The notes under the pieces were generated by a model. The model saw only the letters and a program-made list of their open reading frames with translations, searched no databases and was not told where the DNA came from. Below are positions 3,015 through 49,545 of a stretch of 64,000 nt of DNA, in pieces. Source of the DNA: Gemmatimonadota bacterium (GTDB lineage: Bacteria; Gemmatimonadota; Gemmatimonadetes; Gemmatimonadales; GWC2-71-9); assembly GCA_039588295.1 (NCBI GenBank), contig JBDHAB010000007.1:64001-128000 (forward strand), written 5' to 3'. The position numbers and the translations under genes are program-made. Each line of letters starts with the position of its first letter. Position 1 is the stretch's first letter.

Positions 3015-4142
3015 ATGAATCGGACCGTCTTGGTGCTAGGAGGGTATGGCGGCGCGGGCCGTCGGATCACGGAGCTATTGGCGCGGGAGTCCGGGGTGCG
3101 GGTCGTGGTGGGTGGGCGGCAACTGGGCCCGGCGCAGGGATGGGCGGCGGAGCTCAACCGCGAGCTTCGAAGTGAGCGAGTCACCGCCGTCCTAGCGGAA
3201 GCTTCCAACCCGAGCCTGCTCAGGAAGGCGTTGGCCGACGTCGACCTCGTCGTGGTTGCGTCGAGCACGGCTGCACACGTTGCCACGGTGGCCCAAGCGG
3301 CGATCGAGGCCGAGGTGGATTACCTGGATATCCAATACTCCACGTCGAAGCTACGTGTGCTGGACTCGATGAGGGCTGAGATCGAGCGGCGAGGTCGCTG
3401 CTTCATTACCGACGGCGGCTTCCACCCGGGACTGCCTGCGGTTCTCATCCGCTTCGCCGCCGGCTTCCTGGACCGCCTGCAGCGGGCGAACGTGGCGGCT
3501 GTGGCGAGAATCGATTGGCGGAATCGCACGGTTGCAGCATCGACGAGCACGGAGTTTGCGGAGGAACTGCGGCATTACGAGCCGACGGTGCTCAAGCGAG
3601 GCACATGGGCCCGCTCCCGTTGGTGGGAACGCAAGCGATTCGCGTTTGGCAAGCCGTTCGGGACGTTGTCCACGGTGCCGATGCAACTCGGGGAGATGCG
3701 GAACCTCCCGCATCAGTTTCCCATGCTGGTCGATGCGGGATTCTACGTTGCCGGACTCAATTGGTTTGTCGACTATCTTGCGATGCCGTTCGGCATGCTG
3801 GCGCAGCGTCTGGCGGGTGATCGCGCCACGCCGGCGGTCGGGAAGCTGATCGGGTGGGGGCTGCGAACCTTCACAGTGCCCCCCTACGGGACCGTGGCAG
3901 TCGTCGAGGCGAGCGGGTGGAAGAAGGGGAGGTTGGTGGCAGTCCGAGGTCGGATCGCTCACGAGGACGGTTACGAGCTGACCGCGATCACGGTTGTGGG
4001 GTGTCTGCTCCAATACCTGGACGGTTCCGCAAGACGACCGGGGCTGTGGCATCAGGCGCACCTCGTCGATCCGCGCCGGCTCGTGACGGACTTGGAGCGC
4101 CTCGGCGCCACGGTCGAGTACGATCTGGAGGTCGAGACATGA
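3015..4142 (+). CDS. Saccharopine dehydrogenase-like NAD(P)-binding oxidoreductase
   Basis: VLVLGGYGGAG Rossmann motif, AAIEAEVDYLDI, DGGFHPGLP; substrate unknown. Confidence 0.75.
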   Translation: MNRTVLVLGGYGGAGRRITELLARESGVRVVVGGRQLGPAQGWAAELNRELRSERVTAVLAEASNPSLLRKALADVDLVVVASSTAAHVATVAQAAIEAEVDYLDIQYSTSKLRVLDSMRAEIERRGRCFITDGGFHPGLPAVLIRFAAGFLDRLQRANVAAVARIDWRNRTVAASTSTEFAEELRHYEPTVLKRGTWARSRWWERKRFAFGKPFGTLSTVPMQLGEMRNLPHQFPMLVDAGFYVAGLNWFVDYLAMPFGMLAQRLAGDRATPAVGKLIGWGLRTFTVPPYGTVAVVEASGWKKGRLVAVRGRIAHEDGYELTAITVVGCLLQYLDGSARRPGLWHQAHLVDPRRLVTDLERLGATVEYDLEVET

Positions 4143-4182
4143 ACGCTCTACGGTGGGCGGGCATCATGGGAGAGAGACCGGT

Positions 4183-5529
4183 ATGACGCAGCGCGCTGTC
4201 ATTTTGGGTGCGGCAGGACGTGACTTTCACAATTTCAACGTCTTCTTCAGGGGCAACCCCGAATATCACGTCGTCGCGTTCACTGCGACACAGATTCCGG
4301 ATATCGACGGACGCCGCTATCCGCCGGAGCTTGCCGGCGAGGGGTATCCAGACGGCGTACCGATCGAGGCCGAGCAGGATCTCAGCCGACTGATTCGCGA
4401 CAAGAGCGTAGACGTCGCCGTGTTTGCCTATAGCGATGTTTCGCACGAGCACGTGATGCACGTCGGTGCTCGGGCCATGGCGGCTGGGGCGAGCTTCCTG
4501 CTCCTGGGCCCACGGCAGACCATGCTCACGGCGAAGGTTCCGGTCATCTCGGTCTGTGCCGCGCGGACGGGAGCCGGAAAGAGCCAGACGAGTCGACGAG
4601 TAGCGGCCATCTTGCGGAGCAAGGGGAAGCGGATCGTCGTGGTGCGCCATCCGATGCCGTATGGCGACTTGACCCGGCAGGCCGTCCAGCGGTTTGCGAG
4701 CTTCGAAGATCTCGATGCACACCGCGTCACCATTGAAGAGCGAGAGGAGTACGAGCCGCACATTCGCGCGGGCTGCGTGGTGTATGCGGGGGTTGATTAC
4801 GAGCGGATTCTGCAGCGGGCCGAGCAAGAGGCGGACGTGATCATTTGGGACGGCGGCAACAACGACCTGCCCTTCTACAGGCCCGATCTCCACATTGTGG
4901 TGGTCGACCCCCATCGGGCGGACCACGCGAAGCGGTACCACCCAGGGGAAACGAATGTCCGGATGGCGGACGTCATCGTCGTGAACAAGGTGGGAACGGC
5001 CGGTTTGGCGGAAGTGGAGCAGGCACGGAGCGTAGCCATGGATCTCAACCCCGACGCGGTAGTCATCGAGGCGGCAAGCCCGATCTTGGTCGAGGAGCCA
5101 GCGTATATCCGTGGCAAGCGGGTACTGGTCATCGAAGACGGACCGACACTCACCCACGGTGAGATGGCGTACGGGGCGGGCTGGGTGGCTGCTCGCCGCT
5201 TCGGAGCGGCGGAGATCGTTGACCCGCGGCCCCATGCCGTCGGGTCGATTCGGGAGACGTTCGAGCGGTACCCCACGACAGGCGCGGTACTGCCCGCTAT
5301 GGGATACGGTACGCAGCAGGTGGATGAGTTGGCTCGAACCATTGCGGCGGTCCCTGCCGATCTCGTGTTGATTGCCACGCCAATCGATCTGCGCCATCTC
5401 ATTGATTTCGACAAGCCGACGCTTCGCGTACGTTATGAGCTTCAGGAGATCGGACGTCCGACTCTGGAGGACGTCCTCTCGGGCTTCGATGACGGAGCGG
5501 GCTCGGTCGAAGGAGTGGCGGCTCCGTAG
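4183..5529 (+). CDS. COG2403 P-loop protein; probable arginine synthetase ArcE-like (often auto-annotated as cyclic 2,3-diphosphoglycerate synthase or GTPase)
   Basis: N-terminal GAAGRDFHNFN...VVAFTATQIPDI, P-loop RTGAGKSQT, RHPMPYGDL, TIEEREEYEPH, WDGGNND, EDGPTLTHG. Confidence 0.75.
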   Translation: MTQRAVILGAAGRDFHNFNVFFRGNPEYHVVAFTATQIPDIDGRRYPPELAGEGYPDGVPIEAEQDLSRLIRDKSVDVAVFAYSDVSHEHVMHVGARAMAAGASFLLLGPRQTMLTAKVPVISVCAARTGAGKSQTSRRVAAILRSKGKRIVVVRHPMPYGDLTRQAVQRFASFEDLDAHRVTIEEREEYEPHIRAGCVVYAGVDYERILQRAEQEADVIIWDGGNNDLPFYRPDLHIVVVDPHRADHAKRYHPGETNVRMADVIVVNKVGTAGLAEVEQARSVAMDLNPDAVVIEAASPILVEEPAYIRGKRVLVIEDGPTLTHGEMAYGAGWVAARRFGAAEIVDPRPHAVGSIRETFERYPTTGAVLPAMGYGTQQVDELARTIAAVPADLVLIATPIDLRHLIDFDKPTLRVRYELQEIGRPTLEDVLSGFDDGAGSVEGVAAP

Positions 5530-5554
5530 CGCTGCAGTCGAGAGGAGATCCGCT

Positions 5555-6754
5555 GTGACAGCGACGAACGGGACAATCGGACTTCTGACCGGCGGTGGGG
5601 ATGTTCCCGGTCTCAATCCTGCCATTCGCGCCATTACGATTCGCGCGCTGCGGGAGGGCTACCGCGTGCTGGGAATTCGCCGAGGCTGGGCTGGCCTCAT
5701 CGATCTCGTTCCAGAGCGCGACGCTGATAACAGCATGCATGTGCAGATGCTGACGGAGGACGTCGTCAATCGTGCGGGTCGGACGGGAGGGACGTTCCTC
5801 CACACATCGCGCACGCGGCCGAGCCGGCTTCCCAAGCCGGTGGTGCCCGAACACCTCCGCGACCGGTACACGGATGAGATCAACGATGTGACACCGTCGG
5901 TGTTGAGGAACCTCGAGTTCCTTGGAATCGACTATCTCGTGCCGATCGGTGGCGACGATACGCTGAGCTACGGCCTGCGCCTGCACCAGGAGGGGGTGAA
6001 GGTCGTGGCGGTCCCCAAGACCATGGACAATGACGTTCCCGGTACGGACTACTGCATCGGGTTCAGCACGTGCGTGACCCGCACGATTGAGATGACCCAC
6101 AGCCTGCGGACCTCCGCGGGGTCACACGAGCGGTTCCTCGTCATCGAGGTGTTTGGGCGGTACGCGGGGTATACGGCGCTGCTGCCTACCATGGCGGGCG
6201 CGGCGGATCGGTGCCTGATTCCCGAACACCGCTTCCAACTAGAGCATCTCTGCGAGCTGCTCAGCTACGACCGCGGACGAAACCCGAGCAAGTACGCAGT
6301 GGTGCTCGTATCGGAGGGAGCCCGCATGACGGACGATGACGAAATGTCCTTCGAAGGTCAGGAACAGGATCAGTATGGTCATCGCAAGCTCGGGGGGATC
6401 GGCGATAAGGTCGCGTCGCGCCTCAAGCTTTGCTCACCGAGGTACAATCAGGGTCGGCGCGTGAACATCGTGAACCAGCGTCTTGGCTACCTGGTGCGGT
6501 GTGGCGATCCGGATGCGATGGACTCGATCGTGCCCATGGCCTTCGGCAACCTCGCGCTCGACCTGGTACTCGGAGGCACCTCCGGCCGCTTGGTGAGCCT
6601 GCGCAACGGTGTGTACGACAGTGTGCCGATCGACGTGGTGACGGGCCGCAAGAAGGTCATCGACGTCGACAAGTACTACAATGTCGAGCGTCTCCGACCC
6701 AACTACAAGACCTTCATCCGACAACCCCTGTTCATCATGACGAGCGATGTCTGA
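5555..6754 (+). CDS. 6-phosphofructokinase, PPi-dependent signature
   Basis: TGGGDVPGLN, GGTFLHTSRT, GGDDT, PKTMDND, EVFGRYAG; GTG start after GAGGAG RBS. Confidence 0.88.
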   Translation: MTATNGTIGLLTGGGDVPGLNPAIRAITIRALREGYRVLGIRRGWAGLIDLVPERDADNSMHVQMLTEDVVNRAGRTGGTFLHTSRTRPSRLPKPVVPEHLRDRYTDEINDVTPSVLRNLEFLGIDYLVPIGGDDTLSYGLRLHQEGVKVVAVPKTMDNDVPGTDYCIGFSTCVTRTIEMTHSLRTSAGSHERFLVIEVFGRYAGYTALLPTMAGAADRCLIPEHRFQLEHLCELLSYDRGRNPSKYAVVLVSEGARMTDDDEMSFEGQEQDQYGHRKLGGIGDKVASRLKLCSPRYNQGRRVNIVNQRLGYLVRCGDPDAMDSIVPMAFGNLALDLVLGGTSGRLVSLRNGVYDSVPIDVVTGRKKVIDVDKYYNVERLRPNYKTFIRQPLFIMTSDV

Positions 6755-7301
6755 ATCGCTGCGCGACGCGGTCGAGGAGCTCTGGCCCGAACTCGAGTGG
6801 ATTGAGTCGAAGGAGCTCCGCGAGCAAGTCACACAGACGTGGGTCCGGGCGTTCGAGCAGAGTCCGCTCGCGCCCGCCGACCTCAACCGGATTCCGTTCA
6901 CCCTTCTGGTGCCGAACTGTCCGGCCACCTTCATGGAGCACAAGCGCTGCGTCGTCCACATTGCACGGCGAGCGGCGGAATCGATGCACGAGTTCCTTGG
7001 GAGCGCGCTCCACATCGACCGGGACACAGTGATTGCCGGAGCGATTCTGGCCGATGTCGGCAAGTTGTTGGAATACGAGAAACGCGATGGAGAGACGCGA
7101 CAGAGCGCCCGCGGTCAGAGTCTCCGCCATCCGTTTACGGGTGTGGCCCTTGCCATGGCATGCCATGTGCCGGACGCGGTCTGTCACATCATTGCCACGC
7201 ATGCCGCCGAGGGTGACTTGGTGCAGCGGAGCACCGAGGCCTACATCGTCCATCATGCGGATTTCATGAGCTACTTGCCGTTCAAGAACCTCGCCGGCTG
7301 A
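6747..7301 (+). CDS. HD/HDIG-fold protein with degenerate HD motif (AD)
   Basis: EHKR...GAILADVGKLLEY...RHPFTG...IIATH...HHADF; overlaps the pfk stop by 8 nt. Confidence 0.75.
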   Translation: MSESLRDAVEELWPELEWIESKELREQVTQTWVRAFEQSPLAPADLNRIPFTLLVPNCPATFMEHKRCVVHIARRAAESMHEFLGSALHIDRDTVIAGAILADVGKLLEYEKRDGETRQSARGQSLRHPFTGVALAMACHVPDAVCHIIATHAAEGDLVQRSTEAYIVHHADFMSYLPFKNLAG

Positions 7302-7339
7302 CGGGCCGCATCCCGGGCAGACGGAAGGAGCCATCCGGA

Positions 7340-8719
7340 ATGTCACAGTCGATCACCGCCACCATGGCCCAGTGGGCCGCCGACCTCGGGTTCGACGATC
7401 TCGGAGCCGAAGCGATTCACGAATCGCGGCGCTACCTGCTCGACTCGCTGGGCTGTGCCTTTGGGGGATATCGCCAGGAGGACGCCCGCATCGCCCTGGA
7501 TGTGCTGGGCGAGATCGGCGGGTCCGGACTGGCGACGGTCCTCGGGAGCGGCGCGCGAACCGATCCCGTGTCGGCGTCGCTGGCGAATGCGCTCATGGTC
7601 CGGGTGATGGACTACAACGACATCTACTGGCAGCAGGACCCATCACATCCGTCGGATATCATCCCGGCCGCGATCGCCTGTGGCGAACGTGCCGGTCGGA
7701 CCGGTAAGGACCTGATCGTCGGCATCGTCCTCGGGCACGAATTCGAGATGCGGCTGTGCGAGGCGGCGTTTCCGGGCATCCGGGAACGCGGATGGCATCA
7801 CGCGACGCTCACGGCCTTCGTCTCGCCGATCGTGGCGGGTCGAATGCTCGGTCTGTCGTGGGATCGCATTCAGCATGCGATCGGGATCTCGGCGTCGCGA
7901 CACGCGACGTTCGGTGCAGTGACCGCTGGCAAGCTCACGATGATGAAGAACACGGTGGATCCGTTGGCGACGCAGAGCGGCGTACTCGCGGCGCTGTTGG
8001 CCGAACGCGGCTATACGGGTCCGGAGCACGTGGTGGATGGCAAGGAAGGACTGGTCCACTGCTTCGGGCCGGAGTGGAAGCTCGAGATTCTCACAGAGGG
8101 TTTGGGGCAGTCGTGGCGCATCGAGCGCTGCGGGATGAAAGCATTTCCGACCGAGGCGTTGACGCACGCCCCGATCTCCGCGGTGCTTGCCATCGTGCAG
8201 GAGCACGATCTGGCACCCGAGCAGGTGGCGACGGTGCGTATCCGCTCGCTTGCGCGCGCGGCCGATATCCTGGCAGACCCGAGCAAGTACGACCCGCGAA
8301 CAAAGGAGACCGCGGACCACAGTCTCCCGTATGTCGTCGCGGCTGCCCTGGTCGACCGTCAAGTCACGCCAGCCCAGTTTGAGTCCGACCGTATCATGGA
8401 CCCGAAGATTCGTGAGCAGCTCCGCAAGGTCGAAGTGGTGGCCGACCCCGAGATCGAGAAGGTGTTTCCGGAATTGCAGCGGGTAATTGTGCAGATCGAC
8501 ACGACGGACGGTCGTGCGTTGACGCAAACGTTGGACTACCCGAAGGGTGATCCGCGAAACCCACTCACCGACCATGAGATCGAAGAGAAGTTCGACGCGC
8601 TCGCGGCGCCGGTGCTCTCGCAGCGTGCGAGGGACCGGCTGAAGGCCGCCGTCTGGGAGCTGGAGTCCATGGACTCGATTTCAGACCTCATGGCGCTGTG
8701 CCGGGCCGACGTAACGTGA
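7340..8719 (+). CDS. MmgE/PrpD family dehydratase
   Basis: LLDSLGCA, DYNDIY...SHPSDII, KAFPTEALTH, TADHSLPY, YPKGDPRNPL; GGAG RBS. Confidence 0.9.
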   Translation: MSQSITATMAQWAADLGFDDLGAEAIHESRRYLLDSLGCAFGGYRQEDARIALDVLGEIGGSGLATVLGSGARTDPVSASLANALMVRVMDYNDIYWQQDPSHPSDIIPAAIACGERAGRTGKDLIVGIVLGHEFEMRLCEAAFPGIRERGWHHATLTAFVSPIVAGRMLGLSWDRIQHAIGISASRHATFGAVTAGKLTMMKNTVDPLATQSGVLAALLAERGYTGPEHVVDGKEGLVHCFGPEWKLEILTEGLGQSWRIERCGMKAFPTEALTHAPISAVLAIVQEHDLAPEQVATVRIRSLARAADILADPSKYDPRTKETADHSLPYVVAAALVDRQVTPAQFESDRIMDPKIREQLRKVEVVADPEIEKVFPELQRVIVQIDTTDGRALTQTLDYPKGDPRNPLTDHEIEEKFDALAAPVLSQRARDRLKAAVWELESMDSISDLMALCRADVT

Positions 8720-8785
8720 TCCCGCAGTGGCGGGGCGGAGGCGATGGCCGTGGCCGCGGTATCGCCTCCCCTGGGTGAGGGCATT

Positions 8786-10729
8786 ATGGGACAGACCGTC
8801 GTTGAGAAGATCGCCCAGCAGCACATGACAGCCGGTCCCGAGCGGTCGATCTGCACGGGAGACGTCGTGTCGCTTCGGCCTCGGTACGTGATGACCCATG
8901 ACAACACGGCCGCGGTGATGAAGAAGTTCCAATCCATTGGTGCGACGCGGATTTGGGATCCTCGGCAGCCGGTCTTCGCACTCGATCACGACATCCAGAA
9001 CACCTCGGAGACGAATCTCGCCAAGTATCGGGAGATCGAGGCGTTCGCGCGCGCGCACGGCGTCGACTTCTACCCGGCCGGGACGGGCATCGGACACCAG
9101 ATCGTCGTGGCTCGTGGGTATGCGGTACCGGGCGCGCTCGTCGTGGCGTCGGATTCCCATTCCAACATGTACGGCGCGGTTGGGGCCCTCGGGACACCGG
9201 TCGTCAGGACGGACGCTGCCGCCATCTGGGCGACCGGCGAATTCTGGTGGCAGATTCCCAGAACGGTACAGGTCGTGTTGCACGGTCACTTGCGCGATGG
9301 CGTGACAGGGAAGGATGTCATCATTACGCTGTGTGGACTCTACAACGACGAGGTACTGAACGCGGCGGTCGAGTTTGCAGGGCCGGCGATCGCGGGCCTC
9401 AGCATGGACGCGCGCATGACGATCGCCAACATGACCACCGAGTGGGGTGCGTTGGTCGGCTGGTTTCCAGTGGACGATGTGACCCTTCGGTACCTCGCTC
9501 GCCGCAAGGAGCTGCTGGACGCGCAAGGGGAGACACGGTATACGGACGAAGACCTGGCGCAGTGGCGCGAAGCGCCGCCAGCCCCCGATCCGGAAGCGGC
9601 GTACGCGGGGCGCATCGACCTGAACTTGTCCGACGTCAGTCCGCACGCGTCGGGCCCTGACAGTGTGCACGTGATGCGTTCCGTCGCGGATATCGAACAG
9701 GATCGGGTCGTGATACAGAAGGCCTATCTGGTCTCGTGTGTCAACAGTCGCGTCGAAGATCTGGAAGCCGCCGCGCGTGTGATGCGCGGGAAGCGCGTCG
9801 CCGATGGGGTCGAGTTCTATGTCTCGGCGGCGAGCCGCGAGGTGGAGGAAGCCGCGGCGGAATCCGATGCGTGGGGCGCGTTGTTGGAAGCGGGGGCGAG
9901 GCCGCTGCCCCCCGGCTGCGGCCCGTGTATCGGCTTGGGTGCCGGGCTGCTCGAGTCGGGTGAGGTCGGCATCTCCGCCACGAACCGCAACTTCAAGGGT
10001 CGCATGGGGTCGAGGGACGCCCGGTGCTATCTGGCCAGCCCGGAGGTGGTGGCCGCCTCAGCGGTCGCGGGATACATCACCGGGCCCCGTGCGTCCGACG
10101 GACGCCAACCGGAGCGCCGGTATGCCGAGCCGGCGACCGCAGCCTCCGCAGCCGAAGCGGTAAAGATCCAGGAGGGATTCCCGGAGCGAGTCTCCGGGCG
10201 GCTCGTCTTCGTGCCGCAGGACAGCCTCAATACCGACGGGATCTACGGCAAGGACTACACGTATCGCGAGGGCATGACACCGGGGGAAATGGCAGGTGTG
10301 GTCATGGAGAACTACGATCCCACGTTCTCCGAGCGGGTGCGGCCGGGAGACATCCTGGTGGGTGGCTGGAACTTCGGCACAGGGTCGTCGCGCGAACAGG
10401 CCGTGACGGCGCTCCAGGCGAAAGGGCTTCCGCTGGTGATCGCGGGAAGTTTCTCGCAGACGTACCTGCGCAACGCGTACAACAACGGGTATCCCTGCAT
10501 CGCGTGCGACGCGTTGGTGAGACGGTTGAAGGAGTTACTCACCGCTGCCGTCACCGCGCGCGAGCTCACCGTGATTCCAGGTGACGAACTGCTCGTAGAT
10601 TTCGCGCGGAGCACGTTGCGCTACCGCGATGAGGTATTCGCGTTTCCACCGTTGGGGGCCGTACCGCAATCGCTGGTCATCGCGGGTGGGATCGAGAATC
10701 AAATTCGGAACAAGCTGGGAGTGGGTTGA
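8786..10729 (+). CDS. lysF: Single-chain homoaconitase, fungal Lys4/LysF type (large and small subunits fused)
   Basis: MTHDN, LDHDIQN, YPAGTGIGHQ, ASDSHSNMYG, GTPVVRTDAAAIWATGEFWWQIP; Fe-S cysteines in SCVNSR and GCGPCIG; swivel domain NTDGIYG and NFGTGSSREQA. Confidence 0.85.
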   Translation: MGQTVVEKIAQQHMTAGPERSICTGDVVSLRPRYVMTHDNTAAVMKKFQSIGATRIWDPRQPVFALDHDIQNTSETNLAKYREIEAFARAHGVDFYPAGTGIGHQIVVARGYAVPGALVVASDSHSNMYGAVGALGTPVVRTDAAAIWATGEFWWQIPRTVQVVLHGHLRDGVTGKDVIITLCGLYNDEVLNAAVEFAGPAIAGLSMDARMTIANMTTEWGALVGWFPVDDVTLRYLARRKELLDAQGETRYTDEDLAQWREAPPAPDPEAAYAGRIDLNLSDVSPHASGPDSVHVMRSVADIEQDRVVIQKAYLVSCVNSRVEDLEAAARVMRGKRVADGVEFYVSAASREVEEAAAESDAWGALLEAGARPLPPGCGPCIGLGAGLLESGEVGISATNRNFKGRMGSRDARCYLASPEVVAASAVAGYITGPRASDGRQPERRYAEPATAASAAEAVKIQEGFPERVSGRLVFVPQDSLNTDGIYGKDYTYREGMTPGEMAGVVMENYDPTFSERVRPGDILVGGWNFGTGSSREQAVTALQAKGLPLVIAGSFSQTYLRNAYNNGYPCIACDALVRRLKELLTAAVTARELTVIPGDELLVDFARSTLRYRDEVFAFPPLGAVPQSLVIAGGIENQIRNKLGVG

Positions 10730-10777
10730 CCGTCGTAGCCGCTCTCGAGCGCTGAAGGTTGGGAGGAAGAGGCTGAA

Positions 10778-11965
10778 ATGGGGAAACACACCGTCGTGAC
10801 GATGCCGGGTGATGGGATCGGGGCCGTCGTGCTACCGGAGGCCATTCGGGTGCTTCAGGCAGTCGGGTTCGACGCGGACTATGTGCACGCCGACATCGGG
10901 TGGCAATTCTGGGTCACCGAGGCCAATCCGCTCCCGGAGCGCACGATCGATCTGCTGAAAGAACACAAGCTCGGTCTGTTTGGAGCGATCACCTCCAAGC
11001 CTAAAGCCGAAGCACGTGCGGAGCTGCGGCCGGAGCTGCGTGACGCCGGGTACGAGTATTTCAGCCCGATCGTGGGCATGCGGCAGATCTTCAATCTCGA
11101 CGTGTGCATTCGGCCCTGTCGCTCGTTCCCGGGTAACCCGCTCAATTTCGTGCGCCAGCAACCCGGTGGCGGTGCCGAGGAGCCCAAGGTCGATGCCGTG
11201 GTGTTCCGACAGAATACCGAGGGGCTCTACTGCGGCATCGAGTGGACCGACCCGCCGCAAGTGGTCCGCAATGCCCTCGGCATGCACCCGAAATACCGAC
11301 CGTTCGCGGACGTTCCGGGCGAGGAGTTGGCGCTGTCGGTCCGGATGTTCACCCGCAACGCCTGCCGACGGATCGTCCGCGCCGCGTTCGCATACGCGCA
11401 GCAGCACGGCTACCGGTCAGTGACGATCTGCGAGAAGCCGAACGTGTTGCGCGAAACCTCCGGGATGATGGAAGAGATTGCGCGGGACGTACAGCGGGAA
11501 TTCCCCGACATCCAACGTTGGTCGACCAACATCGACGCACAAATGATGTGGCTGACCAAGAATCCCGAAGACTATGGTGTGATCGTGGCGGGGAATCTGT
11601 TCGGCGACATCATCTCCGACGCCTTTGCCGGATTGGTTGGTGGCCTTGGCTTTGCGTGTTCGGGTAACATCGGCGATGACGTGGCCGTGTTCGAACCGAC
11701 CCACGGATCGGCGCCGAAGTATGCCGAGTTGGATCCACCCATCGTGAACCCCATCGCGATGACGTTGAGCGCGGCGATGCTGCTCGACCACGTGGGTGCC
11801 AGCGAGCAGGCCGGTCGTGTGCGGCAAGCCGTTGCGGCTGTCGTTCAACAGGGGCAGGTACGGACCTACGATATGTTGCGCCTGGCAGGCGGGCCGGAAG
11901 TGACGAAAGCCGGTGCCGCGACGACCGCGCAGATGACCGACGCGATCATCAGCGCGCTCGGATAG
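10778..11965 (+). CDS. Beta-hydroxyacid decarboxylating dehydrogenase, homoisocitrate-dehydrogenase-like
   Basis: PGDGIG, FGAITS...YFSPIVGMR, RQNTEGLY, KPNVL, NLFGDIISD, FEPTHGSAP, NPIAM. Confidence 0.85.
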   Translation: MGKHTVVTMPGDGIGAVVLPEAIRVLQAVGFDADYVHADIGWQFWVTEANPLPERTIDLLKEHKLGLFGAITSKPKAEARAELRPELRDAGYEYFSPIVGMRQIFNLDVCIRPCRSFPGNPLNFVRQQPGGGAEEPKVDAVVFRQNTEGLYCGIEWTDPPQVVRNALGMHPKYRPFADVPGEELALSVRMFTRNACRRIVRAAFAYAQQHGYRSVTICEKPNVLRETSGMMEEIARDVQREFPDIQRWSTNIDAQMMWLTKNPEDYGVIVAGNLFGDIISDAFAGLVGGLGFACSGNIGDDVAVFEPTHGSAPKYAELDPPIVNPIAMTLSAAMLLDHVGASEQAGRVRQAVAAVVQQGQVRTYDMLRLAGGPEVTKAGAATTAQMTDAIISALG

Positions 11966-11976
11966 GAGGACACGTC

Positions 11977-13197
11977 ATGACGGTCCGCGGTGTTGCGGGT
12001 CGAACGGGCGACGACGCGCGTTCTGATCTCCAGGTGACCGTGGAGCTCCGGCGGTCCGGCGGACTCGGAATCACGCTTGCCTCCAAGGTGGAGGCGCTAT
12101 ATGGACAGTCGATCGTCGAACTGACGGAGGGGCTGCTCTCGGAACTCGGAGTCGAGCACGCGGCGATTGCGATCGAGGATCAGGGTGCGTTGCCGTTTGT
12201 CATCGCCGCGCGTCTCGAGACAGCCGTGCGGCGTGCCGGCGCTCCGGCCCGCGGAGACGGTCGCCCACCGTGCACCGTCCCGCGGCGCGCGGCATCCCCA
12301 CAGGCGCGTGTTCGGCGCTCTCGGCTCTATCTGCCCGGCAACGAGCCCAAGTTCCTCGTCAACGCCGGTCTGCACCGGCCCGATGCGGTGATTCTCGATC
12401 TCGAAGATTCAGTCCATCCGGCGGAGAAGGACGCCGCGCGCATCTTGGTGCGGAATGCGCTTCGCTGTGTCGACTTCCTGGGTGCCGAGCGGATGGTGCG
12501 GATCAATCAACTGCCCGCCGGGCTCGAGGATCTTGAAATGGTCGTCCCTGAGCACCCTGACCTCGTGCTCATTCCCAAGACCGAGCGACCGGACGCGGTG
12601 CGCCGTGTGCATGAGCAGATTCGCACCATTCAGGATCGGGAGAAGGACGCCGACCCGATTTGGCTGATGCCGATTCTCGAGTCGGCGTTGGGCGTGGAGC
12701 ATGCGTTCGACATCGCCCGAGCGGTGGACTCGGTCGCCGCACTCACCATTGGTCTCGAGGACTACACGGCCGATCTCGGGGTCGCGAAGACTCGGCATGG
12801 CGAGGAGTCGCTCTTTGCGCGCATGCGGCTCGTGAACGCGGCGCGCGCGGCGGGGGTGCAGGCGATCGACTCGGTGTACGGCGATATTGCTGATGTCGAC
12901 GGGCTCGCGGCGTGGGGCGCGCGCTCGCGTGCCCTGGGGTTTGACGGCATGGGGTGCGTTCATCCGCGGCAGATCGACGTGGTCCACCAGGCGTTTGCAC
13001 CGCCGCAGGCGGAGCTCGACAAGGCGTTGCAGATCGTTGCCGCCTTCGAGCAGGCGCAGGCACAGGGACTGGCGGTCGTGAGCCTTGGCACGCGCATGAT
13101 CGATCCTCCGGTGGTGTTGCGGGCGCAGCGGCTCGTGGATCGAGCGCGTCGATCCGGACTGCTCCCCGAAACGGCTGATCGCGGGGGGGCGCCATGA
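11977..13197 (+). CDS. citE: Citrate-lyase ACP (CitD-like) fused to citryl-CoA lyase (CitE/HpcH family)
   Basis: N-terminal ~90 aa with SKVEALYG...EDQGALPFVIAARLETAV (CitD pattern), then RRSRLYLPGN, ILDLEDSV, VRIN, IPK, ILESALG, GLEDYTAD, CVHPRQ, MIDPPV. Confidence 0.85.
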   Translation: MTVRGVAGRTGDDARSDLQVTVELRRSGGLGITLASKVEALYGQSIVELTEGLLSELGVEHAAIAIEDQGALPFVIAARLETAVRRAGAPARGDGRPPCTVPRRAASPQARVRRSRLYLPGNEPKFLVNAGLHRPDAVILDLEDSVHPAEKDAARILVRNALRCVDFLGAERMVRINQLPAGLEDLEMVVPEHPDLVLIPKTERPDAVRRVHEQIRTIQDREKDADPIWLMPILESALGVEHAFDIARAVDSVAALTIGLEDYTADLGVAKTRHGEESLFARMRLVNAARAAGVQAIDSVYGDIADVDGLAAWGARSRALGFDGMGCVHPRQIDVVHQAFAPPQAELDKALQIVAAFEQAQAQGLAVVSLGTRMIDPPVVLRAQRLVDRARRSGLLPETADRGGAP

Positions 13198-14771
13198 GCG
13201 CCGTCGGCTTCGCATCCAATGATGCGGGGCGGCGCGTGCCCAAGGTCGTCAACGGACGGAAGCAGGCGCCCTACCAGGGGGTGGGTGGGTACGATCCGCA
13301 CGCCACGAAGTGCGCACCGCCGGTCCGTTCCTGCCGGGATTATCCGCTGAACGGAGACAAGTGTGTGTCGAGTCTTCGGGCCGCCCTCGAGCAGTGCGGT
13401 CTCGCAGACGGCATGGTGATCTCTACCCATCATCACTTGCGCAATGGGGACCGGGTGGCGGTTGCCGCGCTCGAGGCCGCCGCGGCGCTGGGCGTGAAGG
13501 ACCTCATGTGGTTCCCCAGTGCCTCCTTTCCTTGCCATGCACCGGTGATCGAGCTCATGGATCGCGGCGTGGTGCATCACATCGAAGGCAGCATGAACGG
13601 ACCGTTGGGCGACTACTGCTCTCGAGGCAAGATGCGCGGTCTAGGCGTTCTTCGGTCGCACGGTGGGCGCTGGCAGGCGATCCAGGACGGGGAGGTCAAG
13701 ATCGATGTCGCGGTCATTGCCGCGCCGACCGCCGACCCCTTCGGTAACGCCGACGGGTCGCACGGGCCCTCGGCGTGCGGCTCGTTGGGGTTCGCGTTGG
13801 CGGATTCGATCTACGCCGACCATGTGATCGTCGTGACCGACAACATCGTTCCGTTTCCCTGTGTGCCGTGGCAAATCCAGGGGAACAATGTCGACTGTGT
13901 GGTCCAAGTCGACTCGATTGGTGATCCCTCGAAGATCGTGTCCGGGACCACGCAGATTACCAAGAGTCCGGATCGTCTGTTGATTGCCGAGTACGTCGCG
14001 CGGTTCCTGCGCGACGTCGGCATTATGCGAGACGGATTCTCGTTTCAGGCCGGTGCTGGCGGTATTGCCCTCGCCTTCGTGCAGTTCCTGAAGGGAATGA
14101 TGCAACGGGCGGGCGTGAAGGCGCGTTTCGTGCGTGGTGGATCCACGCAATATCTCGTGGAGTTGCTGAACGAAGGCCTGGCGGACTACATCCTGGACGG
14201 TCAGACGTTCGACCTCGCGGGTGTCGCGTCGATCGCGTCGGATCCGCGCCATATCGCGACGTCGCCATTCACGTCCTACAATTACCACGGGAAGGGGAAC
14301 TTCGCGTCGATCGTCGACGCCGCCGTGCTTGGCGCTACCGAGGTCGACGTGAGCTTCAACGCGAACGTGGTGACCCACTCGGACGGTTTCCTGCTTCACG
14401 GGATCGGGGGATGGCAAAACTGCCTGTTCGCGGGGTGCACGATTCTGGCGGTGCCGGCGTTTCGCGACCGGATCCCCGTCATCGTGGATGAAGTCACGAC
14501 GCTGTGCGGGCCATCCCAATTGATCGACGTGGTTGTAACCGAGCGCGGAATCGCGATCAACCCGCGGCGGGCGGATTTGCTCGAGCGGGTGCAGGGGTCC
14601 GATCTCCCGATTCGACCGCTTGAGGAGATCAAGGACGAGGTCCAGGCTATTCTGGGTGGCCGCCCGGAGCAGCCACGCGTAACCGACCGACCTGTCGCCG
14701 TGATCAAGTGGGTCGACGGGACGGTGTTGGACACCGTGTGGCAGGTCGACACCGCGGATCGGAGAGGATGA
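13194..14771 (+). CDS. citF: Citrate lyase alpha subunit / CoA-transferase (CitF family)
   Basis: GLADGMVISTHHHLRNGD, RSHGGR, ACGSLG, SFQAGAGG, LGATEVD, GIGG, IDVVVTERGIAINPRR, DGTVLDTV; ATGA overlap with the upstream gene. Confidence 0.9.
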   Translation: MSAVGFASNDAGRRVPKVVNGRKQAPYQGVGGYDPHATKCAPPVRSCRDYPLNGDKCVSSLRAALEQCGLADGMVISTHHHLRNGDRVAVAALEAAAALGVKDLMWFPSASFPCHAPVIELMDRGVVHHIEGSMNGPLGDYCSRGKMRGLGVLRSHGGRWQAIQDGEVKIDVAVIAAPTADPFGNADGSHGPSACGSLGFALADSIYADHVIVVTDNIVPFPCVPWQIQGNNVDCVVQVDSIGDPSKIVSGTTQITKSPDRLLIAEYVARFLRDVGIMRDGFSFQAGAGGIALAFVQFLKGMMQRAGVKARFVRGGSTQYLVELLNEGLADYILDGQTFDLAGVASIASDPRHIATSPFTSYNYHGKGNFASIVDAAVLGATEVDVSFNANVVTHSDGFLLHGIGGWQNCLFAGCTILAVPAFRDRIPVIVDEVTTLCGPSQLIDVVVTERGIAINPRRADLLERVQGSDLPIRPLEEIKDEVQAILGGRPEQPRVTDRPVAVIKWVDGTVLDTVWQVDTADRRG

Positions 14772-14953
14772 CAATGCTCGAACTGCAGGAACGCCGCGAT
14801 GTATCGCCCGTGTGCCCGCACTGCGATCAAGCGATTGGTTTGCTGTGGTTTCAGTCGCTGGCGGGGATGTTGGGGCGCCGCTATGTGTACTTCTGCCCGA
14901 GCTGCCACCGGGTACTGGGTGTGTCCCATCGCAAGGGATTCTGGATGGGCTGA
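14768..14953 (+). CDS. Small (61 aa) Zn-ribbon protein
   Basis: CPHC...CPSC, ends SHRKGFWMG; ATG overlaps the citF stop (ATGA). Confidence 0.7.
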   Translation: MTMLELQERRDVSPVCPHCDQAIGLLWFQSLAGMLGRRYVYFCPSCHRVLGVSHRKGFWMG

Positions 14954-15083: not shown

Positions 15084-16130
15084 ATGGCAGGGATCGTAGG
15101 CTACGGGGCGTTCGTTCCCCGCAACCGGATCACGTCGGAGGAGATCGCCCGGCAGTGGGGCAAGGATCCCGAAAGTATCCGTCGAGGTCTGCTCCTCGAA
15201 GAGAAGTCGGTGCCGGGGATCGACGAAGACACGATCACGATCTCCGTGGCGGCGGGCCGGGCGGCACTCGAGCGCGCGGGGGTCAACCCGCAGCGAGTCG
15301 GCGCCCTGTATATCGGGTCGGAATCCCATCCCTATGCCGTCAAGCCGAGCGGGACCGTTGTTGCGGAAGCCCTGGGGATCGGACCCGAGGTCCACATAGC
15401 CGACTTGGAGTTCGCGTGCAAGGCGGGCACGGAGGCCATGTTCGTTGCCTTCGGACTGGTGGAATCGGGGCGGGTGGAATACGCGATGGGTATCGGCGCC
15501 GACACCTCACAAGGCGCCCCGAACGATGCGTTGGAGTTCTCGGCATCGGCGGGCGGTGCGGCGTTTCTGTTCGGCGGGACGAACCTGCTCACCGAGGTGC
15601 TCGAAACGTACAGCTACACGTCCGACACGCCCGATTTCTGGAGACGTGAGGGTGAATTTTATCCGCGGCACAGCGGGCGTTTCACGGGGGAGCCGGCCTA
15701 CTTCAAGCATGTCACCGCCGCGACCCGCGGCATCTTAGAAAGGTCCGGGCTCCGCCCCCAAGACTTTCGTTACGTCGTGTTTCACATGCCCAACGGGAAG
15801 TTCCCACTCTCGGTGGGCAAGCAGCTCGGGTTCACGAAGGAGCAGCTCGAGGTGGGGTGGGTCGTTCCCACCATGGGCAATACGTACTCTGGCTCCTCGC
15901 CAACCGGGCTGGCGGCAATCCTGGACGTGGCGGCGCCTGGCGATCTGGTGCTCATCACGTCGTTCGGCTCCGGGGCGGGGAGCGACTCGTTCGTCCTCCG
16001 AGCCACCGAGCTCCTCCCCGAACGGCGCAGCCGCGCACCCACGGTGCGCTCGATGCTTGAAGGCAGGAGGCGATACCTCACGTACGGTGAGTACGCGAAG
16101 TATCGCGAGAAGATCTTGGTGAACGATTGA
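15084..16130 (+). CDS. Hydroxymethylglutaryl-CoA synthase, archaeal type
   Basis: GIVGYGAFVP, DEDTITI, GSESHPYAVKP, catalytic EFACKAGT, DTPDFWRR, RFTGEPAYF, FHMPNGKFP, GNTYSG, SFGSGAGSD; GGAGGAGG RBS. Confidence 0.9.
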   Translation: MAGIVGYGAFVPRNRITSEEIARQWGKDPESIRRGLLLEEKSVPGIDEDTITISVAAGRAALERAGVNPQRVGALYIGSESHPYAVKPSGTVVAEALGIGPEVHIADLEFACKAGTEAMFVAFGLVESGRVEYAMGIGADTSQGAPNDALEFSASAGGAAFLFGGTNLLTEVLETYSYTSDTPDFWRREGEFYPRHSGRFTGEPAYFKHVTAATRGILERSGLRPQDFRYVVFHMPNGKFPLSVGKQLGFTKEQLEVGWVVPTMGNTYSGSSPTGLAAILDVAAPGDLVLITSFGSGAGSDSFVLRATELLPERRSRAPTVRSMLEGRRRYLTYGEYAKYREKILVND

Positions 16131-16176
16131 TCCCGGCTCGCGAACCGCAGCCGACAGCTAACACGAGGAGGTGTGC

Positions 16177-17325
16177 ATGCGAGAGGTAGCGATCGTCGCG
16201 GCCGGGATGACCCGCTTCGGCGAGCTCTGGCAATCGAGCCTACGCGACCTCTTTGTCGAGGCGGCGTCCGAGGCACTGCGGAATGCCGGCACCGACCGAC
16301 TCGACGCGATCTACGTGGGCAACATGTCCGGCGGGCAGTTCGTGGGGCAGGAACATCTTGGCCCACTGATGGCGGATCATCTCGGGATGGCGGGGGTGGC
16401 GTCGACGCGTGTCGAGTCCGCCTGCGCCTCGGGAGGCGTGGCGCTCAGGACCGCGGTGCTCGAGGTGGCGTCCGGTATGAGTGACCTGGTGTTGGCAGCC
16501 GGAGTGGAGAAGATGAACGACGGCGTGGACGTGACTAACGTGCTCGCCACCGCCGCCGATCAGGAGACCGAAGTCTATCACGGTATCACGTTCCCTGGGC
16601 TCTACGCGATGATTGCCCGAGCCCACATGAAGGCATATGGGACCACCGAAGAGGATCTGGCCGCTGTCTCCGTAAAGAACCACCGCCACGGAGCGCTCAA
16701 TCCCAAGGCACAGTTCCAAACAGAGGTGACGCCAGAGCAGGTCATGCAGTCCTCGATGGTCGCCGAGCCGCTTCGGCTGCTGCACTGCTCGCCGGTGAGC
16801 GACGGTGCGGCCGCCGTCCTGGTGTGTTCGCTGGAGCGCGCGCGCGAGTTCACTGACAAGCCGGTGAAGATCAGGGGAAGTGGCCTGGCCACCGCCTCGA
16901 TGGCACTCGCCGATCGTCCTGACCCGGCGTTTCTGGATGCCGTGAGCCTCGCCGCCAGTCGTGCATACAAAGCCGCAGGTATCGGACCGGCCGATGTGCA
17001 GGTTGCCGAAGTCCATGACTGCTTCACCATTGCCGAATTGTGCGCGATAGAGGCGCTGTGTCTCACAGAGCGCGGAGCCGCGGGTGAAGCCACGCGTGCG
17101 GGCGAGACGGCGCTCGGGGGGCGCGTCCCCATCAACACGAGCGGAGGGCTCAAGTCGAAAGGCCACCCTGTTGGAGCGACGGGGGTGGCGCAGGCTATCG
17201 AGATCGTGGAGCAGCTACGGGGCGAGGCAGGTGATCGTCAGGTGGAGGGTGCTTCACTTGGCCTCTGTCAGAACATGGGCGGGTCGGGCGCAAGCTCGGT
17301 GGTCCACATCCTCGAGAGAGTCTAA
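16177..17325 (+). CDS. Acetyl-CoA acetyltransferase (archaeal/SCP2-type thiolase)
   Basis: [53 protein letters not shown]. Confidence 0.9.
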
Positions 17326-17327
17326 TC

Positions 17328-17720
17328 ATGCCGAGTCCGAGATACTGGAGAGAGATCCCGAATCGCTACCGACTCGAGGCGCGGCGCTGCGGCAGTTGCA
17401 GTCGTGTCGTGTTTCCGGCGCGTCGTATCTGTCCCGGCTGTGGTGGCAGCGAGTTCGAGACCATCGCGCTGTCGCACCGGGGAACGGTCGTGACATCGAC
17501 CGTCGTCCATGTCGCTCCCGCAGAGTTTCTGATGGAGGCTCCCTATGCCATCGCCGTGGTGGAGACTCCGGAGGGCGCGCGCCTCATGGTCCAGGTAACG
17601 GACTGCGATCCTGCGGAAGTGGAGCCCGGGACTGCAGTCGACTTGGAGTTCCGGAAGATCCGTCGTGAGGGAAACGGCGGCATCCTGTGCTACGGGTACA
17701 AAGGGGTGCCGGCTGGCTGA
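17328..17720 (+). CDS. DUF35 Zn-ribbon/OB-fold scaffold protein
   Basis: PRYWREIPNRYRL, CGSC...CPGC, PYAIAVVE, FRKI...YGYK; 2 nt after the thiolase. Confidence 0.9.
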   Translation: MPSPRYWREIPNRYRLEARRCGSCSRVVFPARRICPGCGGSEFETIALSHRGTVVTSTVVHVAPAEFLMEAPYAIAVVETPEGARLMVQVTDCDPAEVEPGTAVDLEFRKIRREGNGGILCYGYKGVPAG

Positions 17721-35639: not shown

Positions 35640-36875
35640 CTAGCGGTTCTGCCGAAACAGCGGGAACACGTTCTCGAAGAGCCTGTCTCGGACAGCCCGG
35701 AGCACACGGCGGGTGTCGGGTCTGGGATCCCCGTCACTTGCGATGCCCAGCGTGTTGAATGCCGCGATCGCAGCGGCACCGGACTCGGGGTCGACGTAGA
35801 AGAAGGAGACGAAGCCCTTCTGACCGCCGGTGTGACCGATGACACGGAGGTCCCGGTGCCGCAGCACGAAGAACGTGAGCCCCATGGCCTCACGGAGTGC
35901 GGATTCACCCTCGGCCGGCATCTCGACCTGGATCTGCCACATCTCCTCGAGCGATCGCCTTGCGAGGATATGACCGTACCGGTCGGCGCCTGGATAGCTC
36001 GCGTCTCCGGCCAGGAACGTGAGGTAGTGGATCATGTCGGGAATCGGCGCGTTCAGACCGCCGTTCGACACGGTGATGCCGGTGTCGAAATCAAGGCCGT
36101 TCGCCGATACCTGACCATCGGTCACATAGTAGTTGTTCGACCGGTCGCCTAAGAGGTGATAGGGAGTGCCGTCGAAATAGGCGCGGTACATTCCGAGCGG
36201 CTTCAGGATGTTCTTGTCCACGTATACCTCGTAGTCGTCCCCCGTGATCTGCTCGATGATGCGTCCGAGGAAGATGATGGCGGGATTCGAGTAGCCGTAG
36301 CGGCTTCCAGGTTCGAAGTGGATACGTGTATAGGGGAGCATTGCTACGATTTGGCTCCACGCCGTTGGCTCGTGAGGGTGCCAAGGCTCCTCGCCACCCC
36401 AGGGCCAGGTCGGTCCACGGAATCCGGACGAATGGCTCATGAGATGGCGGATCGTAATCTCGTCCATGCCGCCAAACGGATTGTGTACCGCGCGCAGCTC
36501 GGGGAGGTAATGCACAATCGGGTCGTCGAGGTGCACCAGGTCGCGGTCACGCAGCTGCATGATCGCGATGCCCGTGAAGGTCTTGGTGATCGAGGCCCAG
36601 TGATAGATGGTGGCATCGGAGACCGGTCGTTGCGTTTCGACGTCGGCAAGACCGTAGAGCTCCTTGCCAAGGATGCGTCCGCGATCGGCGAACCACAGAC
36701 TGCTCCCAATGATGCCTGCGTCTTCGACGCGCTGCCGGTACAAGGCGCTTGCGTCTCGCCAGGCTGCGTCGTACCCGGCGGGCGTCTGAGCCGCCAAGCG
36801 CGAGTGGGTGTCGGGGACGACGAGGGGCAGCACCAACAAGCATGTGGTTCGTGCGAAGTGCCAAGTGCCGGCCAT
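35640..36875 (-). CDS. Serine hydrolase (beta-lactamase class C-like), exported
   Basis: SxxK in WASITKT, LMSHSSG, YxN in YGYSN, GHTGG. Confidence 0.88.
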   Translation of the reverse strand: MAGTWHFARTTCLLVLPLVVPDTHSRLAAQTPAGYDAAWRDASALYRQRVEDAGIIGSSLWFADRGRILGKELYGLADVETQRPVSDATIYHWASITKTFTGIAIMQLRDRDLVHLDDPIVHYLPELRAVHNPFGGMDEITIRHLMSHSSGFRGPTWPWGGEEPWHPHEPTAWSQIVAMLPYTRIHFEPGSRYGYSNPAIIFLGRIIEQITGDDYEVYVDKNILKPLGMYRAYFDGTPYHLLGDRSNNYYVTDGQVSANGLDFDTGITVSNGGLNAPIPDMIHYLTFLAGDASYPGADRYGHILARRSLEEMWQIQVEMPAEGESALREAMGLTFFVLRHRDLRVIGHTGGQKGFVSFFYVDPESGAAAIAAFNTLGIASDGDPRPDTRRVLRAVRDRLFENVFPLFRQNR

Positions 36876-41855: not shown

Positions 41856-42029
41856 AACCCATTGGATCGGGGAGTGGGGCGTTGGGGAGCGGTATCTCGA
41901 AGCGAGCGGTAAGGCAAGACCGGCAACCCGCCGGGAGCGCCAATCGTGTTCGCGTCGCAGGCCCTCCGCAGCACTCGACTTCCCGTTGTTGTTTCTGAGC
42001 CCGCTCAGGGAAACCGAGGAGATTCACCC

Positions 42030-43480: not shown

Positions 43481-44868
<1,388 letters not shown>

Positions 44869-46755: not shown

Positions 46756-49545
<2,790 letters not shown>

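Follow-up and report, generated by a model that had tools for sequence, protein, structure and literature searches.

A conserved six-gene module of a Gemmatimonadota bacterium as a candidate reverse homocitrate route for 2-oxoadipate

Introduction

The closest described relatives of the gene module presented here are the upper alpha-aminoadipate pathway, composed of homocitrate synthase (HCS), aconitase together with Lys4/LysF, and the Lys12 homoisocitrate dehydrogenase (HICDH), with HacAB variants in Thermus and archaea, and the citrate (pro-3S)-lyase CitDEF of the Klebsiella aerogenes type. Further relatives are the CcsAB/Ccl and ATP-citrate lyase systems of the reductive tricarboxylic acid (rTCA) cycle and the 2-methylcitrate cycle (PrpC, PrpD, AcnB, PrpB). 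The module lies on the + strand at positions 6747 to 14953 of a 64,000-nt stretch of DNA, referred to as the window, which covers positions 64,001 to 128,000 of contig JBDHAB010000007.1 (contig C7 in our numbering) in the Gemmatimonadota bacterium assembly GCA_039588295.1, a genome of 4.5 Mb that is 96% complete.

With the alpha-aminoadipate pathway the module shares a Lys4-type enzyme that passes TIGR00139, the SPIV motif of the S. pombe HICDH and the use of two isomerisation enzymes. Unlike that pathway, it has a lyase instead of a synthase, an NADP-type instead of an NAD-type coenzyme site and a PrpD-family protein, not an aconitase, for the homocitrate step, and we propose that it uses (S)- rather than (R)-homocitrate and runs in the reverse direction. 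Adjacent homologues of CitD, CitE and CitF stand in the same order as in canonical CitDEF loci (L110-L112; L and G numbers denote the loci and genomes compared), yet CitD is fused to CitE, the prosthetic-group Ser is replaced, the accessory genes citC, citG and citX were not found in the source genome, the 2-oxoacid pocket appears altered, and a homoaconitase and a dehydrogenase stand next to it in place of a citrate transporter. The logic of the rTCA systems (carboxylation, isomerisation, CoA activation, retro-Claisen cleavage) would be the same with one CH2 more, and sister loci use a ligase and Ccl pair that passes citryl-CoA lyase models; unlike these systems, the window encodes a CoA-transferase that would need no ATP, in a linear route and not an autotrophic cycle. 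A PrpD-family dehydratase and an aconitase-family hydratase for a (3S)-alkylcitrate recall the 2-methylcitrate cycle, but the module lacks methylcitrate synthase and PrpB, and its PrpD-family protein fails the PrpD equivalogs.

The sinks described for the proposed substrate, 2-oxoadipate, are the HglS/YdcJ oxygenase and 2-oxoadipate dehydrogenase, the latter leading to glutaryl-CoA. HglS leads towards 2-oxoglutarate. As far as they are described in the sources consulted, both sinks release CO2 and HglS needs O2, whereas the proposed route would fix CO2 and consume NADPH. We assign a probability of roughly two-thirds (0.68) to the reading that the module is a reverse homocitrate route, in which 2-oxoadipate, CO2 and NADPH would give homoisocitrate, then homoaconitate, (S)-homocitrate and finally 2-oxoglutarate and acetate. 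A preliminary description of the window had already suggested the homocitrate series and a catabolic direction, both of which are favoured by the comparative genomics of synteny, active-site motifs and genome context reported below.

Results

Gene content and conservation of the module

Seven + strand genes with gaps of less than 70 nt had been noted in the preliminary description. The coordinates of the open reading frames (ORFs) agree with this: intergenic gaps in gene order are 38, 24, 48, 11, -4 and -4 nt, and the second becomes 66 nt, the largest, if the homoaconitase starts at 8786, where its homologues begin. The co-oriented run is thus as described, while the conserved unit comprises six of the seven genes, which encode an HD-fold metalloprotein, a PrpD-family protein, a homoaconitase, a beta-decarboxylating dehydrogenase, a CitD-CitE fusion and a CitF-family CoA-transferase; the last, zinc-ribbon ORF is not part of this core. 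Neighbourhoods were counted in the best 80 loci of at least 598 confirmed homoaconitase relatives, several of these loci being short contigs. The HD protein and the dehydrogenase were each present in 57 of the 80, the PrpD-like protein in 44, CitDE in 36 and CitF in 33, and the zinc-ribbon ORF in none. The genes are syntenic across phyla, with the order of the window in Gemmatimonadota and Terriglobia and a rearranged one in Ignavibacteria and Marinimicrobia; that the genes stay together despite this speaks for a functional unit. Carriers belong to soil and sediment lineages, which also include Chthoniobacterales/Udaeobacter and Planctomycetota. Within an even sample of the phylum the distribution is patchy (dehydrogenase in 18 of 151 genomes), and among the best 120 protein matches there was no cultured carrier, only metagenome-assembled genomes (MAGs) or unnamed proteins.

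Substrate and coenzyme sites of the dehydrogenase

The dehydrogenase (10778..11965, +), whose relatives are annotated in databases as isopropylmalate dehydrogenase (IPMDH) or NAD-dependent isocitrate dehydrogenase (NAD-IDH), has all catalytic residues of the beta-decarboxylating family intact. Residues S96-P97-I98-V99, K314, Y315, V323 and Y364 are invariant in 56 of 56 module dehydrogenases, and the aligned stretch of the S. pombe HICDH reads 'sspiv', the same SPIV motif. The corresponding stretch of isocitrate dehydrogenase (ICD) is S113-L-N115, in which we take Ser113 and Asn115 to hold the gamma-carboxylate of isocitrate; the module enzymes keep the Ser113 equivalent and have Ile in place of Asn115 (56/56). 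A family-specific insertion precedes SPIV, and the protein passed none of 16 NCBIfam models (best HICDH model NF040626, 252.5 vs 540; NADP-ICD model TIGR00183, 177 vs 567).

Characterised HICDHs use NAD, and the Thermus enzyme has the NAD-type Asp-Ile pair, which is absent here, with K314-Y315 and Y364 in all 56 sequences. The NADP determinants reported for E. coli, Lys344, Tyr345, Val351 and Tyr391 (PMC10574006), align to K314, Y315, V323 and Y364 in 56 of 56; fungal HICDH was assayed with NAD (PMC3556520). We therefore predict an HICDH-type substrate site combined with an NADP-type coenzyme site. Use of NADPH would suit reductive carboxylation, without proving it.

Gene content of an Ignavibacteriales genome (G033) points independently to homoisocitrate as the substrate. 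It carries lysW, lysX, lysY, lysZ and lysJ in one operon with an HCS-like gene, which scores best against the HCS models yet stays below cut-off. Apart from a 757-aa aconitase, the module enzyme is its sole aconitase-family protein, and its sole PF00180 gene encodes the module dehydrogenase; the other four of the five genomes surveyed for paralogues have further ones. An ordinary ICD, encoded separately from the module dehydrogenase, is found in G027. The G033 operon (L119:6389-15870) also holds a class II amidotransferase-like gene, no lysK was seen inside it, and it is divergent from an Rrf2-like regulator and pcd, so that lysine synthesis genes stand beside degradation genes.

CitD-CitE and CitF differ from canonical citrate lyase

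The CitD-CitE fusion (11977..13197, +), which passes PF06857 and PF03328, and the CitF-family protein (13194..14771, +; PF04223, 438 vs a cut-off of 27) had been called citrate-lyase-like. The homology stands. All three parts score below the specific models (CitF TIGR01584, 481.3 vs 501.45; CitE TIGR01588, 257.9 vs 443.4; CitD TIGR01608, 53.4 vs 63.5). At CitD Ser14, presumably the prosthetic-group site, Arg is found in 31 and Lys in 2 of 33 sequences, and the Ser that follows is conserved in all but one of the 33 (L028, which has Ala). As in the source genome, the accessory proteins were not found in the carriers searched: CitG in 0 of 50, CitX in 0 of 35 and CitC over cut-off in 0 of 34 (7 weak partial matches), with positive E. 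coli controls. Free CoA is the likely carrier, and the lyase is probably not dependent on acyl carrier protein (ACP).

A further difference concerns the column of the malyl-CoA lyase Trp, which is Ser in three canonical CitE proteins and Gly (G326) in 33 of 33 module CitE domains. A Trp that contacts the methyl group of pyruvate is described (PMC3832036), and by our residue mapping this should be the malyl-CoA lyase Trp aligned to G326. Replacement of Trp by Ser and then by Gly would enlarge the pocket stepwise, in keeping with pyruvate, oxaloacetate and 2-oxoglutarate as successively larger putative ligands. In CitF, 43 sites have one invariant residue in the module and a different invariant residue in the canonical proteins, and 87 are invariant in both groups. 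We propose CitD-CitE as a predicted (S)-homocitryl-CoA lyase and CitF as a predicted acetyl-CoA:homocitrate CoA-transferase.

Four lyase systems occupy the same slot

Four systems were found at the position of the lyase. Type A is CitF with CitD-CitE, as in the window. Type B pairs a citryl-CoA-lyase-family protein, which passes citryl-CoA lyase models, with alpha and beta subunits resembling succinyl-CoA synthetase; it is present in 12 of the 80 homoaconitase loci and in L182-L184 and L186. Type C combines a family III CoA-transferase and an HMG-CoA-lyase-family protein with one HacAB (L185, L188, L189), and type D has an ICL/PrpB-family protein. The last two were surveyed in 80 metagenome loci picked by the L185 dehydrogenase. 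Here, the HMG-CoA-lyase-family gene was present in 45 of 80, the family III CoA-transferase in 36 and the ICL/PrpB-family protein in 12, the best PDB match of the last being petal death protein. That protein cleaves (2R)-alkylmalates. The 36 such loci of at least 9 kb held lyase, transferase and HacA together in 22 cases, HacA only in 6, none of these in 6 and other sets in 2. SP[IV] is kept in 80 of 80 of these dehydrogenases and HGSAPKY in 70. No homocitrate-synthase-like gene was found in the 80 loci; L185, L188 and L189 had been candidates for biosynthetic HCS operons, which was rejected, the weak match being the HMG-CoA-lyase-family gene.

The lyase types interleave on a dehydrogenase tree of 41 module rows and 3 references, from which, given its long outgroup branches, neither a root nor an order of events was drawn. 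Cleavage of 2-substituted malates, by a retro-aldol or retro-Claisen reaction, is common to all four lyase families. That unrelated cleavage systems have repeatedly replaced one another speaks most strongly for a cleavage as the terminal step. At L182:970-3138 the ligase alpha subunit is fused to the citryl-CoA-lyase domain inside the module (722 aa), and this ATP-citrate-lyase-like protein might be mistaken for a marker of the rTCA cycle.

CitE and Ccl act on (3S)-CoA esters. Homocitrate synthases and aconitases are described as handling (R)-homocitrate (PMC3556520), Lys4-type enzymes as unable to dehydrate homocitrate, and M. jannaschii HacAB as performing both steps (PMC3556520). The acyl-derived arm of (2S,3S)-methylcitrate is reported to be dehydrated by PrpD, not by aconitases (PMC5690661, PMC3556520). 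A need of CitE or Ccl for (S)-homocitrate would explain why a PrpD-family gene stands beside the Lys4-type enzyme, and R-type lyases served by a single two-step HacAB would predict no PrpD. Indeed, none of the 80 loci centred on types C and D yielded PrpD, the HD protein or the Lys4-type enzyme, and L182 and L183 have a second HacAB-type hydratase where PrpD is missing. The stereochemical assignment suggested by this pattern is of an (S)-branch with CitE or Ccl, PrpD or a second HacAB, and the HD protein, and an (R)-branch with an HMG-CoA-lyase- or ICL-family enzyme and a single HacAB. The chances are about even for the broader reading that includes these branches, namely that one NADP-type dehydrogenase clade was coupled independently to four unrelated 'homocitrate lyases' in a widespread, undescribed, CO2-fixing and redox-balanced catabolism of lysine and 2-oxoadipate.

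Hydratases, HD protein and zinc-ribbon ORF

The single-chain Lys4/LysF-type homoaconitase (8786..10729, +; longest ORF from 8744) scores 719.7 against the TIGR00139 cut-off of 529.9. SCxN, CGxCxG, DSH and GSSRE motifs, which we take to hold the three Fe-S cysteines and the aconitase catalytic residues, are present in 79 of 79 homoaconitases, and the predicted activity is interconversion of cis-homoaconitate and homoisocitrate. An ordinary acnA about 32 kb away, mentioned in the preliminary description, is confirmed by an AcnA (46756-49545, -) that passes TIGR01341.

The MmgE/PrpD-family protein (7340..8719, +) passes PF03972 and PF19305. Its earlier label PrpD is right for the family, not for the closest relatives: it falls below all three PrpD equivalogs (99 vs 950, 82 vs 575, and TIGR02330 60.5 vs 458), and its PDB matches are led by IDS epimerase (E 3.5e-40) and cis-aconitate decarboxylase (about 1e-32), ahead of PrpD (2e-17 to 4e-11). 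H103, the conserved HPS histidine, and R148 are invariant in 43 of 43. We propose a predicted hydro-lyase that interconverts (S)-homocitrate and cis-homoaconitate. PrpD was not nearby in 5 of 36 CitDE loci, some of them at contig ends.

The HD-fold metalloprotein (6747..7301, +; TIGR00277, 29.8 vs 27.6) is a core member of the module. Its HD doublet reads A102-D103; Ala-Asp is also the alignment consensus, with Asp invariant, and H65, D103, K106, R127, H128, H147, H152, R161, H169 and D172 are invariant in 58 of 58 sequences. The predicted model (pLDDT 93) has its best fold match in YhaM (Z 15.9, root-mean-square deviation (rmsd) 3.1, 161 residues aligned; Foldseek E 5e-5 for the HD fold) and also matches the HD-fold hydratase Ddi2 (Z 8.0, rmsd 3.5, 130 aligned). 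Neither the PDB sequence search nor the Atlas returned a function. The protein accompanies type A and B loci and was not found in C and D loci. Our best guess is a metal-dependent hydratase or a repair hydrolase specific to the (S)-branch; speculatively, it might remove wrongly activated (R)-homocitryl-CoA or open homocitrate lactone.

The zinc-ribbon ORF (14768..14953, +; 61 aa, CxxC...CxxC) has no Pfam or NCBIfam match. Of 17 phylum loci, one (L176, 58%) has it at this place, and its Atlas neighbours are hypothetical proteins. It is probably a real gene outside the core. As no LysW model matched, identification as LysW was rejected.

Lysine genes and genome context

The source genome has lat and pcd over cut-off on other contigs, and lysA (also over cut-off), NADP-ICD, LeuB, citrate synthase, AcnA and an NAD-IDH-like gene. 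The module is thus not needed for the tasks of lat, pcd, lysA, ICD, LeuB, citrate synthase and AcnA. The earlier observations that homocitrate synthase and lysX are missing from the window hold: the two HMGL-like matches of the source genome sit on other contigs, and no LysX exceeds its cut-off in the genome. A short LeuA-like gene was considered as a homocitrate synthase; it falls below all HCS cut-offs (189.5 vs 413.55 and 196.9 vs 462.9), adjoins leuB and is probably a leucine gene.

Among 50 carriers, pcd was present in 25 (23 over cut-off), lat in 18 (17), and, over cut-off, lysA in 38 and LysX and 3-HAO in 10 each; HglS was found in 0 of 50 (a set in which G050 is swapped for the source genome). 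Carriers therefore do not consistently have the LysW pathway, in line with the preliminary description. Across the 151 genomes of the phylum, the dehydrogenase is accompanied by pcd in 13 of its 18 carriers (all 10 of the CitE type), and 20 of 133 non-carriers have pcd, relatives in this comparison not being independent and 13 of the 20 pcd-positive non-carriers belonging to one family. Among carriers of the HMG-CoA-lyase-type dehydrogenase clade in this sample, 1 of 4 has pcd (G107; not G117, G147 and G176). Beside the module, lat and pcd over cut-off were found at L042, both genes at L080, pcd at L043 and a divergent pcd at L186, and the type D operon L257 contains LKR-like and saccharopine-dehydrogenase-like genes. 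Glutaryl-CoA-dehydrogenase-like genes directly adjoin the module at L064:14280-15440 and L042:4519-5760, which suggests that 2-oxoadipate routes of both kinds are clustered in some genomes.

Immediately upstream in the window, genes for a saccharopine-dehydrogenase-like NADP domain, a GTPase-like protein and a PFK-family protein (3015-6754, +) run into the HD gene, so that the co-oriented run extends beyond the seven genes; pfk overlaps the HD start by 8 nt. Their order is kept within the genus (L173-L175), and GTPase and PFK also occur at L021 and L176. Downstream (15084-17720, +), 130 nt past the zinc-ribbon ORF, begins an archaeal-type HMG-CoA synthase (passing TIGR00748 and NF003274), followed by a thiolase (NF004720) and a DUF35/ChsH2 protein; in relatives this trio adjoins the module downstream at L021 and L174-L176 and divergently at L010 (= L179) and L019. 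The window also carries pntAB transhydrogenase genes (41946-44868, +), which may connect NADH with NADPH in the proposed redox balance, and a beta-lactamase-family (PF00144) serine hydrolase (35640-36875, -). Promoter and terminator scans gave no useful excess over shuffled sequence (3 vs 2.2 and 4 vs 6.9). On contig C1 of G000, L091:645-3582 holds benzoyl-CoA-reductase-like/2-hydroxyacyl-CoA dehydratase subunits and two activases, below equivalog cut-offs, adjoining leuB, a short LeuA-like gene and an indolepyruvate oxidoreductase; L098:5866-7908 on the same contig encodes a 680-aa aconitase-family protein with a C-terminal large-subunit domain, below all cut-offs and probably a fused LeuD-LeuC.

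Discussion

Taken together, the predicted activities would form a route that degrades 2-oxoadipate, derived mostly from lysine, without oxygen and follows the upper alpha-aminoadipate pathway in reverse. The NADP-type dehydrogenase would carboxylate 2-oxoadipate to (2R,3S)-homoisocitrate with NADPH and CO2, the Lys4-type enzyme would dehydrate this to cis-homoaconitate, and the PrpD-family enzyme would hydrate the latter to (S)-homocitrate, the enantiomer for a Si-specific lyase and the opposite of the synthase product. CitF would transfer CoA from acetyl-CoA to homocitrate and the CitE domain would split (S)-homocitryl-CoA into 2-oxoglutarate and acetyl-CoA, so that free CoA is recycled and acetate leaves the route; the CitD part of the fusion would be a structural remnant without modification. 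Together with lat, pcd and an aminotransferase this would add up to lysine + 2-oxoglutarate + CO2 + H2O -> 2 glutamate + acetate, in which atoms balance, NADH is made and NADPH spent. By analogy with the energies of the citrate series, the overall conversion would be expected to lie close to equilibrium, with the NADPH ratio as driver. The homocitrate/homoaconitate equilibrium is reported to lie far towards homocitrate (PMC3556520), which would pull the hydration of homoaconitate.

Could the module instead be anabolic or mainly amphibolic, making 2-oxoadipate from 2-oxoglutarate and an acetyl unit with CitE/CitF as a reversible synthase? CitE-family reactions are described as reversible (PMC3832036), ten of the 50 carriers have LysX over cut-off, and operons in G029, G033 and G049 have HCS-like and lysX-type genes without homoaconitase or HICDH inside, of which that of G033 can obtain these two steps from the module only. 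We consider this unlikely. The remaining 40 carriers and the source genome have no LysX over cut-off, and most carriers have lysA; the inspected Ignavibacteria LysW carriers bring their own HCS-like gene, so the module lyase is not their synthase. In addition, the ATP-dependent and CoA-free lyase variants suit cleavage, and the linked pcd encodes an aldehyde dehydrogenase on the way from lysine to aminoadipate. In a minority of carriers, lysine synthesis is probably a second role of the homoaconitase and dehydrogenase.

The same chemistry could act on another substrate, in chain shortening of other 2-oxoacids (2-oxopimelate, branched or aromatic-derived) or in scavenging of environmental homocitrate or homoaconitate. 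The insertion before SPIV, the failure of the dehydrogenase to pass any characterised equivalog, the low pcd count among HMG-CoA-lyase-type carriers of the phylum and the Terriglobia carriers discussed below would fit this, but lysine-catabolic genes adjoin two different lyase architectures and the G033 argument points to homoisocitrate, which makes another substrate improbable.

Distinctly unlikely is a citrate-level route, either a spare rTCA segment (2-oxoglutarate + CO2 -> isocitrate -> citrate -> oxaloacetate + acetate) or citrate fermentation. The homology of CitDEF and of the ligase/citryl-CoA-lyase pair, whose lyase passes citryl-CoA lyase models, the ICD-like NADP-type site with its Ser113 equivalent, and the in vitro dehydration of citrate reported for PrpD (PMC5690661) all speak for citrate. 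However, the Asn115 equivalent is uniformly Ile, the hydratase is Lys4-type and not AcnA, and CitE and CitF diverge from the canonical enzymes at many invariant sites. The source genome already has ICD, the NAD-IDH-like gene, AcnA and citrate synthase; as one aconitase is enough for citrate, a second dehydratase would be redundant. The HMG-CoA-lyase- and ICL-type replacements are not citrate lyases either.

A division of labour in which the PrpD-family protein acts as decarboxylase or epimerase and the HD protein as hydratase, with the route branching at homoaconitate, is very unlikely. This would agree with the best PDB matches of the former, with the Ddi2 fold match of the latter and with the steadier occurrence of HD (57/80 vs 44/80), which persists where PrpD was not found. 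The Tyr of IDS epimerase, which we take to be its second catalytic residue, is nevertheless Arg in 43 of 43 PrpD-family proteins, and the second HacAB-type hydratase in place of PrpD at L182 and L183 suggests a hydro-lyase slot. A methylcitrate route was rejected, because a dehydrogenase cannot oxidise the tertiary alcohol of 2-methylisocitrate; prpB and prpC are not linked, neither being among the frequent neighbour families in the 80 homoaconitase loci.

Several observations weigh against the reverse homocitrate route. Not one of the 36 CitDE loci carries pcd or true lat next to the module, and confirmed lat, pcd or LKR does not adjoin the operon in the window, where there is only the upstream saccharopine-dehydrogenase-like NADP domain gene. 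Searches of 17 Terriglobia carriers yielded neither pcd nor lat, which leaves the source of 2-oxoadipate there unexplained; full-length 3-HAO is present in 2 of these 17 and a saccharopine-dehydrogenase-family gene in 12. A competing glutaryl-CoA route is likely in the source genome, which encodes a GcdH-like protein and a 1208-aa E1-family protein. The central enzymes may also run forwards in LysX carriers, and in some of them likely do; NADP use alone does not fix the direction, since NADP-ICD runs oxidatively. Family membership does not prove specificity, as A. fumigatus LysF is reported to have measurable citrate and isocitrate activity (PMC3556520, Table 1). The affinity of the PrpD-family protein to epimerase and decarboxylase counts in the same direction, and PrpD was not found in the CitE-type genomes G009 (= G164) and G016, in a search that had no positive control, which speaks against a strict need for PrpD.

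The module is real and conserved, and the route is apparently undescribed: the preliminary description knew of no report, and we found none in the literature searched, which comprised titles and abstract openings, with most subscription journals outside its coverage. The parts come from known families, and the logic is that of the citrate-cleavage arm of the rTCA cycle, one carbon longer. If the reading is true, homocitrate lyases and NADPH-dependent carboxylation of 2-oxoadipate would be new activities in four enzyme families, (S)-homocitrate would be a natural metabolite, and the Ala-Asp HD protein would gain a new catalytic role. Many 'citrate lyase' and 'citryl-CoA lyase' calls in MAGs would then indicate neither citrate use nor an rTCA cycle, and annotations would have to be corrected for dehydrogenases now called IPMDH or NAD-IDH and for lyases that pass or approach citrate-lyase models. 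The module would also offer a short heterotrophic carboxylation unit for engineering. For the bacteria that carry it, the route would mean that CO2 is fixed and NADPH spent, while the carbon and nitrogen of lysine are returned as glutamate and acetate.

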